Positions 3,001 through 9,000 of a DNA stretch of 64,000 nucleotides are shown here, in pieces. The DNA comes from Escherichia coli. GTDB lineage: Bacteria; Pseudomonadota; Gammaproteobacteria; Enterobacterales; Enterobacteriaceae. Every line of letters begins with the position of its first letter. The stretch's first letter is position 1. The position numbers are program-made. The stretch is from NCBI RefSeq assembly GCF_045037415.1, contig NZ_CP173438.1; one strand, written 5' to 3'.

Positions 3001-6000
3001 TGTTAACCTGCAATAGCCATTCCTACCGTCATGTGCAGGCCATAAAAGAGCACACGCCCGATCATCTCACCGCCAAGAATGAGGATTAGCCCCAGAACAA
3101 GTCCGGCAACGTGAGGTTCACGGCGACGAATGAGCGGACAAAGCCAGCATCCAAGACCTGCGCATAACAATACCACACGCCAGACCTGTAAGGAGGCGTA
3201 ATCTGGTACCAGTGCGCTGGCTTGTTGTACGGATGAGTGAATAGACGCCAGAGACAAACCTTGCAGCACAATCAACCCGGCACAAGCGATCAGCGCCAGA
3301 ATGCTAATGATGGCAAATGGTGTGGTATTAAATGTAACGCGGGCTGCACGCAGAATTGTGGCAGCAAGTATTGGACCGCTCAACAATACCGTCAGGAAGA
3401 AAGCCAGCGTAGTGTAACCGTTATGCCAGGTTGGCACAGTGTCGATTTGATACACGCAGGTCATCATCCAGACGAAAATGATGCCGAGTGCCATGCTGAC
3501 AAGTAACCAGAGTTTCCCCAACGCTTGCGGCATTTTACCGATGACCGCCACCAGCCACCATAATCCGCCAACGGCAAAAAATATGGAACCGGCAGCAATC
3601 TCGTTACTCAGACCAGAAGCTCCGATTCTATTCAGCGAGTTAAACGCCCGCAGTGGCGATCCCAGGTGCATGACAGAGGCAATAAACCCGATGCCCATCA
3701 ACAGCCAGAGGAAAAACATGCCACGAATAATGTGCTGACGGTCTGCGTCATTTTTGGCGGCGAACCAGCCAATTCCGCTAACAATCAGCGCGCCTACTAC
3801 GCATTGACCCAATACGGTAAAGATAACCAGTGGCCATTCATGCCATCCATTTCCCATTTTACACTTCCTCCGGATTAGCCAGATAACCAGTGGTATCGCC
3901 GGTCGGGCGGCTGTTGGCGTTAGGTTTGATAACGATATTGGGTTTTGTGAAATGCGCGCGCGGCAGTGGCGCGACGGCAGCCAGAGTGCCGTGCTTCTGG
4001 CGCAATTCTTCAATTGGACCGAACTCAAGTGCACGCAGTGGGCAGGATTCGACACATATGGGTTGTTTCCCCTCGGCGACGCGCGAATAACAACCATCGC
4101 ACTTCGTCATGTGCCCTTTTTCAGCATTGTACTGTGGCGCGCCGTACGGACAAGCCATGTGGCAGTAGCGGCAGCCGATACAAACATCTTCATCGACCAC
4201 CACAAAGCCATCTTCTCGTTTGTGCATTGCGCCGCTGGGGCAGACTTTGGTACACGCCGGATCATCGCAGTGGTTGCACGAAATTGAGAGATAGTAGGCA
4301 AAGACATTCTGATGCCAGACGCCATTATCTTCCTGCCAGTCGCCGCCAGCATATTCATAAATACGGCGGAAACTGACTTCCGGGCCAAGATCTTTAAAAT
4401 CTTTGCACGCCAGTTCGCAGGTTTTACAGCCAGTACAGCGGCTGGAATCGATAAAAAATCCATATTGTGTGGTCATGGGCTACTCCTTAAACCTTTTCGA
4501 TCTGGACAAGATTGCTGTGCGACGGGTTTCCCTTTGCCAGCGGTGAAGGGCGGTGAGAGGTCAGAATACCGTTAACTGCAGTGGATAGGTCCCCCGTAGG
4601 GGATCGTTCCAACCGTCGAAACCTGGGGTATACGCTGGCAGTGGATGAATAATTTCATCTTTTTTCAATTCCCAGGTATCCGCAATTGTCGCCAGTCGTT
4701 CAGAATAAATTTCGATTTTTCCCGAAGGTGTTTTCAACGGGTTTGCCTGTGGATCTACACGGAATGCGCGGAAAGCGACGTAGTGTTCTTCCGGGCATTT
4801 TTTCTTAAAGATCCCGGTCGTTTTCATCTCCTCGTAGTCGGGCATCTCAGGGTTACGTTCCTTCGTTTTCGCATGGAGATATTTGATCCATTCATGCTGA
4901 CTGCGACCTTCAGTAAAGGTTTGATAAACGTCTGGTCCTAAGCGTTTGGCGACTTCACTCAGCATCCAGTAGATGGGTTTGCGTTCAAATTTTGCTGAGG
5001 TTGCGGGTTGGGCGAGGATCACATAGCCCATATTCCCGGCAGATTCATGAGAGATAAGGTCTTCTTGCTCTGTTGGCATCAGGTCGGGTAACAGGATATC
5101 GCAATACTTAGCCGAGGCAGTCATGAAGTGGTCAATGCCAACAATCATCTCGCACTTGCTGTCATCCTGAAGCACCTCATGGGTGTGATTGATGTCGCCA
5201 TGCTGATTGATCAATGTGTTACTGGCGTAGCACCATAAAAACTTGATGGGGACATCCAGTTTTTCTTTTCCTCGAACACCATCACGGGTCGCGGTCATTT
5301 CCGTACCATGGTCGATGGCATCTGTCCATGTAAAGACGGAAAGCCGCTCATCCGCGTTTCTGACGGGTTATTTCCGAACATAACGACCAGTTTCGTATTG
5401 GCGATATCATCCGGGCTGTTGCCATCATTGGCACCGAACATATAACTCATTGCGGCACTGATCTGTGCGGTACTGTAGCTGCCATAGCGACTGAGAAAAC
5501 CACCGCAAGAGTTCATCAGACGGTACGGGACGTTTGAGTTGGTGATGTTTCCGCCATCTACGCCTGTTCCATAGAGAACATGTACAGCCTCATTGCCGTA
5601 ATCTTTTAGGATCCGCCGAAGATTATCACTGATGGTATCCAGGGCTTCGTCCCAACTTATCCGTTCAAATTTACCTTCACCGCGCTTGCCGACGCGCTTC
5701 ATGGGATATTTCAACCTGTCAGGATGATTCATCCGTCGGCGGATAGAGCGCCCGCGTAAACATGCCCGAACCTGATGATTACCGTAAACGTCGTCACCTG
5801 TCGTATCAGACTCCACCCAGTACACGGTGTCATCTTTCACATGCAAACGTAACAGACAGCGGCTCCCGCAGTTAACGGTGCAGGAACTCCAGACCGCTTT
5901 CTCTTCTACCGGTGCCTGTGCCGCTCGGACCATTTGGGAAAACGGCAAAGTGAAAGCACTGCTTGCCAGCGCGAGACTGCCAAGTGCGGAGGTTTTCATC

Positions 6001-9000
6001 AGACTTCTACGACTGATTTCAGCCGACATGAGCGCCTCTGTGTTATGGATTTTCATCATTACTCACTTATTGCTTTTCAAACAAAATGTCATGTCAAAAT
6101 TTATGGCCGTAGTGGGTTATATTTTTTCGATCTCGACCAGATTAGTGTGCTGCGGGTTTCCCTTCGCCAGTGGTGAAGGGCGCAGAGTGGTTAGCGTATT
6201 CACACAGCCGCCGTGGTCGATTTTATCGCCAGACATATTGGCCTCGTGCCAGGCTCCCTGGCCCATAGCACTAACTCCAGGGAGAATGCGTGGTGTCACT
6301 TTGGCTGGTAGCCGAACTTCGCCACGATGGTTAAACACCCGCACCATATCGCCGTTGGCAATCCCACGTTTCTGTGCATCTATAGGGTTGATCCACACTT
6401 CCTGACGGCAGGCTGCCTTCAGGACATCAATGTTGCCGTAGGTCGAGTGCGTACGGGATTTGTAATGGAAACCAAACAGTTGCAGTGGGAAGGTACTACG
6501 TTCAGGGGAGTCCCACCCTTCAAAGGTTGAGGCATAAACCGGCAGTGGGCTTATCACTTCATCTTTTTCCAGTTCCCAGGTACGGGCAATTTCCGCCAGC
6601 TTGCTGGAATAAATTTCAATCTTACCGGAAGGCGTTTTAAGTGGATTTGCCTCGGGGTCGTCACGAAATGCTTTGTAGGCGACAAAATGACCATTGGGAT
6701 CTTTACGCTTATAGATACCCATTTTTTTTAATTCGTCGTAAGACGGTAACGCCGGATCTTTGGCAAGCATTTTGGCGTACAGATGTTGTAACCATTGTTC
6801 TTGCGTGCGACCTTCAGTGAACTTTTGATAGACGTCAGGTCCAAGACGTTTCGCGACTTCACTCAGGATCCAGTAAATTGGTTTGCGTTCGAATTTTTCG
6901 CTGGTGACAGGCTGGAGGAAAATGAGATATCCCATGTTACCGGCGTAGTCGTTAGGAATAATATCTTCCTGCTCAACGGTCATTAGGTCTGGCAGCAGAA
7001 TGTCGGCATATTTTGCCGATGAGGTCATAAAGTTTTCGATGACCACAATCATTTCGCATTTCGATTCGTCCTGCAGAATTTCATGCGTTTTGTTGATGTC
7101 AGAATGCTGATTAACCAGGGTATTTCCCGCGTAGTTCCAGATGAACTTAATGGGCACATCTAGTTTATCTTTGCCCCGGACGCCGTCGCGGATTGCCGTC
7201 ATTTGCGGGCCATGATCGATAGCATCTGTCCAACTGAAGCAGGAGATTGACGTTTTGACCGGATTATCCAGCACCGGCAGGCGTTCGATGGTAATGGTGT
7301 AGGTCGATTCACGCGCACCACTATTTCCGCCGCTGATGCCGACATTGCCCGTCAAAATAGGCAACATAGCAATAGCGCGTGCCGTCAGCTCGCCGTTTGC
7401 CTGCCGTTGCGGCCCCCAGCCCTGGCAGATATAAGCGGGTTTTGCTGTGCCAATTTCACGCGCCAGTTTGATGATACGGTCTACCGGGATACCTGTAATT
7501 TGCGAAGCCCACTGCGGCGTTTTCGCTGTTTTATCATCACCTTCACCAAGAATATAGGCTTTATAGTGACCATTTTTGGGTGCATCTGCGGGTAAGGTTT
7601 TTTCGTCATAGCCGACGCAGTATTTATCGAGAAAAGGTTGATCAACGAGATTTTCGTTAATCAATACCCAGGCAATACCCGCAACCAGCGCGGCATCGGT
7701 GCCCGGGCGAATAGGAAGCCATTCATCTTCACGACCAGCAGCCGTATCGGTATATCGCGGATCGATAACAATCATTTTTGCGTTCGATTTCTCGCGCGCT
7801 TTTTCAAGAAGATAAGTGATGCCACCGCCGCTCATGCGGGTTTCAGCCGGGTTGTTACCAAACATCACGACCAGCTTGCTGTTTTCAATATCCGTGGTGC
7901 TGTTGCCATCATTACTGCCGTAGGTGTAGGGCATGGCACAGGAAATTTGCGCAGTGCTGTAGGAGCCATACTGGTTTAGTGAACCGCCGTAGCAGTTCAT
8001 CAGGCGTTTGACCGCCGAGGCTGATGGAGAAGAGCGGGTCATATTGCCGCCAACAATCCCCGAAGAGTACTGAATATATACAGCCTCATTGCCATATTGT
8101 TCGACGGTTTTTTTCAGGCTACTGGCGATAGTATCCAGGGCTTCATCCCAGCTAATCCGTTCGAATTTGCCTTCGCCGCGTTTGCCCACGCGTTTCATTG
8201 GGTAATTCAGGCGATCGGGATGATTAATACGCCGACGGATGGAGCGACCGCGCAAACAGGCGCGTACCTGATGGTTGCCATACTTGTCGCTGCCGGTGTT
8301 GTCAGTTTCCACCCAGGTCACTTCATTATCTTTAACATGCAGACGAAGTGCACAGCGGCTACCACAGTTGACGGAACAGGCACCCCAGACCACTTTTTCG
8401 CTGGCCTGTTGTACCGCTGCTGCTGCACTGCGCAGGGTAAACGGCAAAGAAAAACCGCCTGCAGCCAGCGCCAGAGAACCTATCGCAGTAGATTTAACGA
8501 GTGTTCTGCGGCTGATGCCCACCATTTGTTCATTTTTGGACATAACTCACTCCCTGTTCTTTATCGTTATATAAATGTTTATATATTGAATATTTAGCGC
8601 GCTAACAATAGAGGGAATCTACCCATTTGGGGTTAATAATTATTAATCCATATCAATAGAAGGGTATGAGTAATAAGGTGGGGTTATGTTGAATGTTCAA
8701 ATCGCCGGATGTGTCGCATCCGGCGTTCAGTCGATAATGTGTTACTGCGGTTCGGCAGGCGCGCCATCCTGGGTAGACTGCGCGGGAGCAGAGACGTTAC
8801 CGCTGGTGGTACGGGTGTAGAGAATTTTATGCGTATCATTAGCGCAATGCCCGACGACCTGGGAATCAGGCTGATCAACCTGGTCATTGGGTACAATACT
8901 TAACGTGAAGCTGCTTTCGGGTACGCCATTATTGATAATGCGCTGTGATATATCGCTCTGTATGCGCTCACAGGATCCCGGCGCGGCGAGTACCGTGGGT

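Follow-up and report, generated by a model that had tools for sequence, protein, structure and literature searches.

The ynfF gene in the 64,000-nt stretch of Escherichia coli DNA analysed here (the window) has been broken into three reading frames by two deletions, and it is one copy of a pseudogene allele carried by ~10% of complete E. coli genomes. In E. coli K-12, YnfF (b1588) is the catalytic subunit of a selenate/tellurate reductase; it is paralogous to DmsA and belongs to the DMSO-reductase family of Mo-bisPGD enzymes. We put at a little over nine in ten the probability that the double deletion is ancestral to ST131, has been inherited clonally, and has been tolerated through redundancy with YnfE. 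The lesion is already known as a PGAP pseudogene annotation and is not private to the window; it is real but ordinary.

Anatomy of the ynfF lesion

That the locus is a ynfF pseudogene produced by two frame-breaking deletions had been proposed in an earlier note on this DNA, and alignment to an intact allele agrees. Breakpoints were mapped on the ynfF of strain TUM14697 (2424 nt), the intact allele nearest to that of the window, with the alignment anchored at its two ends; a MAFFT placement of deletion 2, which was spread over a false block of mismatches, was rejected after this anchored remapping. The list of open reading frames (ORFs) and the sequence both give three collinear minus-strand pieces, in the three frames that the earlier note had described, with no single ORF of ~807 codons, because each deletion shifts the frame by +1 (Table 1). 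The losses put there at ~210 residues and then ~75-100 residues come to ~193 and ~91 codons, respectively, relative to TUM14697. The interval given, 4487-6059, has the right locus and the wrong start, since the annotated ATG is at 6056. The TGA stop of the first ORF (5297-5295) overlaps an ATG of the native frame (5298-5296), forming ATGA.

Table 1. Coordinates in the window of the ynfF pseudogene, its pieces and its neighbours.
Feature	Position	Strand	Description
ynfF pseudogene, whole	4487..6056	-	1570 nt vs 2424 nt intact; collinear with TUM14697 and K-12 DH1 ynfF except for two gaps
Junction 1	5343/5342	-	580-nt deletion, coding nt 715-1294 (codons 239-432); +1 frameshift; blunt
Junction 2	4569/4568	-	274-nt deletion, coding nt 2069-2342 (codons 690-781); second +1 frameshift; blunt
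Fragment A	5343..6056	-	Native codons 1-238: Tat signal, Fe4S4 domain, first third of molybdopterin domain
Fragment B	4569..5342	-	Native coding nt 1295-2068 (codons 432-690): last part of molybdopterin domain and linker region
Fragment C	4487..4568	-	Native coding nt 2343-2424: last 27 codons, ...ILTSHRPSPLAKGNPSHSNLVQIEKV, and TAA stop
ynfF piece 1 (ORF list)	5295..6059	-	254 aa; ends ...NNPSETRMSG plus 15 out-of-frame residues
Out-of-frame tail of first ORF	5295..5342	-	FPSLHGQMPSTMVRK, read from sequence
ynfF piece 2 (ORF list)	4561..5298	-	245 aa; native frame restarts at 5342 with ISVFTWTDAIDHGTEMTATRDG..., ends ...TYPLQLT
ynfF piece 3 (ORF list)	4487..4612	-	Ends ...NLVQIEKV
ST131 clade marker G694T (Ala232Ser; coding strand)	5363	-	T in window and EC958; G in SE15, EC190759, TUM14697 and K-12
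ynfE, intact tandem paralogue	6117..8543	-	808 aa; WP_000041660.1, annotated in near-identical genome, EC958, SE15 and TUM14697
ynfG, intact	3859..4476	-	205 aa; WP_000213028.1, accession also in K-12 DH1
ynfH, intact	3003..3857	-	284 aa; WP_000526467.1, accession also in intact-ynfF strain
dmsD, intact	2346..2960	-	204 aa; WP_000148693.1, accession also in intact-ynfF strain

Compared with intact K-12 YnfF, the window allele occupies the same position between ynfE and ynfG, has 97-99% DNA identity over the 1570 nt that it keeps, and shares the Tat signal and the Fe4S4 cysteine motif as well as the start and the stop; it differs in lacking coding nt 715-1294 and 2069-2342, in being divided among three reading frames, and in no longer coding for a molybdopterin core or for the cap domain at the C-terminus. 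The Tat signal in fragment A is visible as an SRRSLMK motif and as a weak Pfam TAT_signal match (residues 13-31, E 0.036), and the Fe4S4 domain PF04879 is matched over the full model (residues 52-111, E 3.6e-13). The molybdopterin domain PF00384, which spans model positions 1-353 in the intact allele, is incomplete: fragment A covers positions 1-123 of 353 and fragment B positions 257-353 in a different frame, and positions 124-256 are absent from the remnant. The C-terminal molybdopterin dinucleotide-binding domain, PF01568, corresponds to residues 686-799 of intact YnfF, most of which fall within deletion 2, and Pfam did not detect it in fragment B. Since the molybdopterin domain has lost its central part and the dinucleotide-binding domain almost everything, the window allele is, as judged from its sequence, one from which an active YnfF catalytic subunit cannot be made.

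Could the fragments nevertheless have a function? They might be translated, B perhaps by termination-reinitiation at the ATGA (5295-5298), and keep some task, for example in binding DmsD by way of the Tat signal peptide. Fragment A does retain the native RBS and start codon along with its Tat signal and Fe4S4 domain, the stop of its ORF overlaps an ATG from which fragment B could be read in its native frame, and a ynfF transcript has been detected in EC958 (PMC12096835). However, the domain losses exclude catalysis, and the ATGA overlap is an accidental product of the frameshift, so we hold a working split gene to be highly improbable.

The tandem paralogue in the same window resembles the remnant in domain order and in amino acid sequence, with 67% identity to fragment A over YnfE residues 10-239 and 68% to fragment B over residues 433-692 (BLASTP). 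Unlike ynfF, it is intact, and the ynfF junctions contain no sequence derived from it. Gene conversion or unequal recombination with ynfE was therefore rejected as the origin of the lesion. The earlier note's view that ynfE, ynfG, ynfH and dmsD are intact holds for all four: they are full length, and in an assembly identical to the window over 2301-9800 their protein accessions are the same as in the intact-ynfF strain. Between fragment C and the ynfG start downstream of it lie 10 nt, and AAGGAG, the Shine-Dalgarno sequence of ynfG, overlaps the ynfF stop. A promoter and terminator scan of the operon found nothing relevant to the pseudogene above shuffled background.

Distribution in E. coli and descent within ST131

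A survey of E. coli genomes for the same breakpoints, as the earlier note had proposed, recovered junction 1 in 545 of 5426 complete genomes (100-nt probe across the junction, 5293-5392) and junction 2 likewise in 545 of 5426 (strict 44-nt probe), all chromosomal and all annotated as a pseudogene. A 100-nt probe for junction 2 gave 553 matches; the surplus is best explained by the search tool having joined two half-matches lying 274 nt apart in close intact alleles. By arithmetic on match counts, ~8 non-carrier genomes share the allele background at >=99% identity (that is, at least 99%), and 7 are listed as intact ynfF alleles (Rb-23, TUM14697, 1002W03, SCU-115, DETEC-P881, L1PEag1 and GmM077). 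A single strain, AVS0051, has an IS1 inserted in the ynfF remnant, at window-equivalent 5387-5395. This insertion was considered as the source of the 553/545 mismatch and rejected, since it lies almost wholly outside the junction-1 probe, which still matches fully.

We give next to no credence to the idea that the window ynfF is a sequencing or assembly artefact, or a different gene that is naturally shorter. An artefact is conceivable a priori for a tandem pair of paralogues, and nothing further speaks for it; the junctions recur unchanged in complete genomes that many laboratories assembled independently, 545 for each junction, which rules out such an origin for the lesion. As for a different gene, the pieces have 97-99% DNA identity to ynfF rather than to ynfE, they lie in the orthologous position between ynfE and ynfG, where the locus is 99.2% identical to the TUM14697 region, and their frames are broken in the ORF list.

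The 1570-nt "frameshifted" coding sequence is annotated in EC958 (O25b:H4-ST131), SE15, EC190759 and SCAID WND1-2022, the last of which matches the window at 99.992% identity across 64 kb, and PGAP calls the same interval of the near-identical genome NZ_CP102947.1 "molybdopterin-dependent oxidoreductase, frameshifted". The carriers span ST131 clade C (EC958) and clade A (SE15), with a PGAP pseudogene in both (EC958_RS29595 and ECSF_RS26240, respectively); these are the same 1570-nt allele with the same junctions, of which the window holds another copy. All ST131 genomes checked (EC958, SE15 and "strain ST131" by name) carry the allele. By extrapolation from this handful of strains and from the allele background common to the carriers, the lesion would be found throughout ST131, and its carriers may belong to ST131 only. 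TUM14697, with its intact ynfF, has a fumC identical to that of SE15 and differs from it by 0.2% over a 29-kb flank, and is therefore a close relative of ST131. A literature search found no explicit account of the ST131 ynfF allele in published papers.

Within ST131 the remnants that we compared vary only at coding nt 694, apart from one private SNP in EC958; the window differs by one base from the SE15 remnant and by one base from that of EC958. Window position 5363 corresponds to EC958 position 1727956 (pseudogene start 1727263 + 693), a site in EC958_1806, "YnfF", where clade B and strain H17 are reported to have G, and the later B0, C0 and C groups T (PMC4850260, Table 1). By its T at this published B0/C0/C marker, the window belongs to the clade C lineage. 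Coding nt 1353-1434 hold a cluster of 8 differences between the pseudogene and TUM14697, which we considered as a possible conversion patch in the former; K-12 agrees with the pseudogene at 6 of the 8 sites, and the patch therefore belongs to the TUM14697 allele.

These comparisons bear on two descriptions in the earlier note that prove too strong. The gene was called decayed, whereas since the deletions the ST131 remnants have gained one or two SNPs and one IS1. The lesion was also read as relaxed selection on the second catalytic subunit, whereas intact ynfF has a dN/dS of 0.044, compared with 0.049 for ynfE. Intact ynfF is strongly constrained elsewhere, and any relaxation is therefore specific to the ST131 lineage. 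A lineage-fixed, already annotated ST131 pseudogene is a better description of the locus.

One deletion event or two

Against both TUM14697 and K-12, each junction has 0 nt of microhomology and no filler. No allele with a single deletion occurs among the 5426 complete genomes, for which chimeric queries were built, and the junctions are always paired. Of the earlier note's "two independent frame-breaking deletions", two frame-breaking deletions remain; their independence does not follow from junctions that are both blunt and never found apart. As far as the sequences go, such junctions leave one complex event and two successive events indistinguishable.

A succession in which the first deletion killed ynfF and the second came later, independently and under relaxed selection, falls slightly short of an even chance in our judgment. 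There are two distinct junctions 774 nt apart, each frame-breaking alone, and the divergence between TUM14697 and SE15 leaves time for two events. On the other hand, no intermediate allele occurs in the genomes surveyed, the signature shared by the two junctions is an unusual one that a single complex repair fits equally well, and the remnant has hardly changed within ST131, so that a high rate of continuing decay is not evident.

In either case, the blunt ends suggest that the deletions were independent of homology. An imperfect direct repeat is present, with AACCCGGCAGAAACACGGA near the left breakpoint and AACCCGGTCAAAACGCAGA reaching precisely to the right one (13 of 19 ungapped positions match); slippage between these copies was rejected as the mechanism of deletion, as the left copy stops 8 nt short of the breakpoint.

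Probable tolerance of the loss and its consequences

To the observed lesion anatomy, distribution, presence in clades A and C, and intact neighbours, the favoured account adds a history. An ancestor of ST131 would have lost the 580 nt and 274 nt of ynfF before clades A, B and C split, probably on the stem branch, and the lesion would then have been passed on clonally to reach its present share of complete genomes. The loss may have been tolerated because YnfE, together with YnfG, YnfH and DmsD, was kept and would be enough for selenate reduction, making it neutral or near-neutral through redundancy. In Salmonella, selenate reductase activity is one to which YnfF "does not contribute greatly", and in a delta-ynfF strain YnfE remains as the sole catalytic subunit (PMC5203670). 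Data on redundancy were obtained in Salmonella and in double mutants of K-12 rather than in ST131.

Given its dN/dS, ynfF is not generally dispensable, and its loss in ST131 could bring a cost or a benefit. During within-patient ExPEC evolution ynfF was hit twice, by one SNP and one large deletion, with convergence between patients (PMC7845604); ynfE and ynfF are among the most often pseudogenised E. coli metabolic genes (PMC13322260); and the constraint on intact ynfF elsewhere means that its loss is not trivially neutral. Such observations would fit selection for ynfF inactivation while the ST131 ancestor lived in an extraintestinal or gut niche. We regard adaptive loss of this kind as unlikely, however, because one fixation on one clonal stem branch would look the same under hitch-hiking or drift, and because ST131, with ~10% of genomes, could alone explain much of the reported ynfF pseudogene frequency. 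We also give a low probability to a non-neutral loss that was either host-selected, in convergence with the within-patient ExPEC deletions, or felt through a retained 253-residue Tat-signal/Fe4S4 fragment that is made and titrates DmsD or the Tat machinery. If such titration were real, the maturation of DmsABC and YnfE would be altered in the pandemic ST131 clone.

Understanding of the enzyme family is unchanged by the ynfF lesion, whose value is mainly practical. The blunt junctions form a simple signature, testable by PCR, of ST131 clades A and C and are a candidate ST131 marker. Pangenome surveys (PMC13322260) may overstate how often ynfF is a pseudogene, since ST131 has been heavily sequenced and its copies would go back to one ancestral event. 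A 2025 study that measured the expression of seven S-/N-oxide reductases in EC958 included "ynfF" among them and left its truncation there unmentioned (PMC12096835). In ST131 model strains YnfF should not be counted as a functional enzyme, and metabolic models of ST131 should include YnfE only.

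Breakpoints and coding capacity of the ynfF remnant

Between ynfE and ynfG, the ORF list of the window holds three successive minus-strand ORFs in three frames. Comparison with the window's own ynfE by BLASTP bears out the earlier note's description of a split ynfF: piece 1 matches YnfE residues 10-239 at 67% identity, and piece 2, translated from 5349 in the native frame, matches residues 433-692 at 68%. Among 5426 complete E. coli genomes, strain TUM14697 has the closest intact allele (region 99.2% identical, gene 2424 nt). Mapped against this allele and K-12 DH1, as the note had proposed, the window's ynfF is 1570 nt long (4487-6056, with the annotated start at the ATG at 6056), and both deletions could be placed (Table). 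The gap of deletion 2 was misaligned by MAFFT, and its position was set by anchoring from both ends. Because both deletion lengths equal 1 modulo 3, the remnants lie in three frames.

Table. Coordinates of ynfF, its neighbors, its deletions, and the Pfam domains of intact YnfF
Feature	Position	Strand	Length	Details
ynfE	6117-8543	-	808 aa	
ynfG	3859-4476	-		
ynfF ORF 1	5295..6059	-		ends ...NNPSETRMSG, then 15 unrelated residues
ynfF ORF 2	4561..5298	-		contains ...TATRDG...TYPLQLT
ynfF ORF 3	4487..4612	-		ends ...NLVQIEKV
Deletion 1	coding nt 715-1294		580 nt	codons 239-432; junction 5343|5342
Deletion 2	coding nt 2069-2342		274 nt	codons 690-781; junction 4569|4568
Tat signal	residues 13-31			Pfam
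Fe4S4	residues 52-111			Pfam
Molybdopterin domain	residues 114-565			Pfam
Dinucleotide-binding domain	residues 686-799			Pfam

By Pfam, fragment A (5343..6056) retains the Tat signal, Fe4S4, and PF00384 model positions 1-123; fragment B (4569..5342) retains PF00384 positions 257-353 only; and PF01568 is essentially absent. Judged from this sequence, the window's ynfF would be incapable of yielding a catalytic subunit.

The remainder of ynfEFGH-dmsD is intact, as had been claimed. The window is identical to the genome of SCAID WND1-2022 across 2301-9800 (99.992% across all 64 kb), and in that genome the protein accessions of ynfE, ynfG, ynfH, and dmsD match those of TUM14697, with the YnfG accession also that of K-12. 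The Shine-Dalgarno sequence of ynfG is unaffected by the lesion. Translation of ORF 1 should end at the TGA at 5297-5295. This codon overlaps a native-frame ATG of fragment B (ATGA, 5295-5298, minus strand); the overlap is probably accidental. It could permit termination-reinitiation and could reduce polarity on ynfGH-dmsD. DmsABC-dependent phenotypes reported for EC958 (PMC12096835), which carries the same remnant, suggest that dmsD downstream is still expressed.

Distribution and origin of the deletions

A 100-nt probe spanning junction 1 was covered in 545 genomes, and a strict 44-nt probe found junction 2 in exactly 545, every match being chromosomal and at a site where the annotation has a molybdopterin-dependent oxidoreductase pseudogene. 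Among the carriers are EC958, whose organism name is O25b:H4-ST131; SE15, a commensal strain that serves as the clade A reference of ST131; and a record with the name "O25b:H4-ST131 strain ST131". PGAP flags the 1570-nt CDS as "frameshifted" in all three. By arithmetic on match counts, only about eight non-carrier genomes have this allele background at ≥99% identity, seven of them listed as intact alleles in the results of two chimeric queries used to seek single-deletion alleles. An allele with deletion 1 only or deletion 2 only would top the ranking at 100% coverage; none was found in this genome collection, where the queries matched only intact alleles at 92-93% coverage. TUM14697 and SE15 have identical fumC and differ by 0.2% over 29 kb of flank, which is consistent with TUM14697 being a close relative that lies either outside ST131 or at its base.

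With either TUM14697 or K-12 as reference, neither microhomology nor inserted bases were found at the two junctions, and such blunt joins point to homology-independent deletion, which could be illegitimate recombination or double-strand-break end-joining. Both frame-breaking deletions of the earlier note are mapped; their independence does not follow, since the deletions are blunt, lie 774 nt apart, and have no known intermediate, a pattern that fits two successive events about as well as one complex repair event.

The remnants of the window, EC958, SE15, and EC190759 (a further carrier) differ at only two coding positions. The SNP at nt 37 is private to EC958. At nt 694 the window and EC958 have T; SE15, EC190759, and the intact alleles have G. 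In EC958 coordinates, nt 694 is 1727956 (pseudogene start 1727263 + 693), a position in EC958_1806 ("YnfF") listed among SNPs gained stepwise from clade B to clade C (Ben Zakour et al. 2016; PMC4850260). On this sequence evidence, the T therefore assigns the window to ST131's B0/C0/C lineage, and the deletions would be older than the divergence among clades A, B, and C.

Other damaged or notable genes in the window

A fimbrial outer-membrane usher gene (~41789-44439, plus strand) belongs to a fimA-like/chaperone/usher/fimF/fimG/ydeQ cluster and carries the annotation "frameshifted" in the 99.992%-identical NZ_CP102947.1; it is a second pseudogene in the window. A frameshifted diguanylate cyclase remnant of only 164 nt (~59869-60032, plus strand), lacking its N-terminus, stands directly upstream of intact dosP; by position it looks like dosC/dgcO, and the DosC-DosP pair seems to have lost its cyclase partner in this lineage. 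The near-identical genome's annotation also gives an M16-family metallopeptidase gene without N-terminus directly after ydeM (~53671-54588, plus strand). Between dcp and dgcZ (~20854-21062) lie remnants of 81 and 90 nt (2-oxo-tetronate isomerase and ydeI-like genes), and yneK is reduced to 102 nt (~28299-28400); these scars indicate more deletions relative to other E. coli. ydfJ, an MFS transporter gene (13774-15141, plus strand) directly downstream of rspB, is full-length by annotation; in K-12 it is presumably interrupted here by the Qin prophage.

Constraint, tolerance of the loss, and use of the allele

The suggestion of relaxed selection on the second catalytic subunit does not hold species-wide: pairwise Nei-Gojobori dN/dS is 0.044 for intact ynfF (TUM14697 vs. 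K-12) and 0.049 for ynfE (ST131 vs. K-12), so intact ynfF is as constrained as its paralog. "Decayed" also overstates the case, as later change within ST131 is minimal, comprising one or two SNPs and one IS1. This IS1, in the ST131-type AVS0051 (NZ_CP124429.1), lies 44-52 nt upstream of junction 1, where 9 bp of target (window-equivalent 5387-5395) are duplicated, and is the sole further structural decay observed. Relative to the ST131 remnant, ynfF of TUM14697 (4188-6611 of the region compared) has eight substitutions within 82 nt (coding nt 1353-1434), with ST131 matching K-12 at six of them; this pattern suggests that a short stretch was recombined into the TUM14697-type allele and not into ST131.

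The loss is plausible in light of published reports. YnfF of Salmonella "does not contribute greatly" to selenate reduction, which a ynfF deletion mutant still carries out via YnfE (PMC5203670); deletion of both ynfE and ynfF abolishes the activity in E. coli (PMC12724226). Both genes are among the most frequently pseudogenized metabolic genes of an E. coli pangenome (PMC13322260), and within-patient ExPEC evolution yielded two ynfF hits, one a large deletion (PMC7845604).

Hundreds of RefSeq records already flag the allele as a pseudogene, and a published ST131 SNP table includes its first fragment (PMC4850260); our literature search found no paper describing the two deletions or how widely they occur across ST131. 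A study of EC958 counts ynfF as an expressed reductase gene, the truncation unmentioned (PMC12096835). The finding is real and precisely mapped, and the window's ynfF is an ordinary, apparently lineage-fixed, already annotated pseudogene, useful as a lineage marker and a caution for work on ST131.
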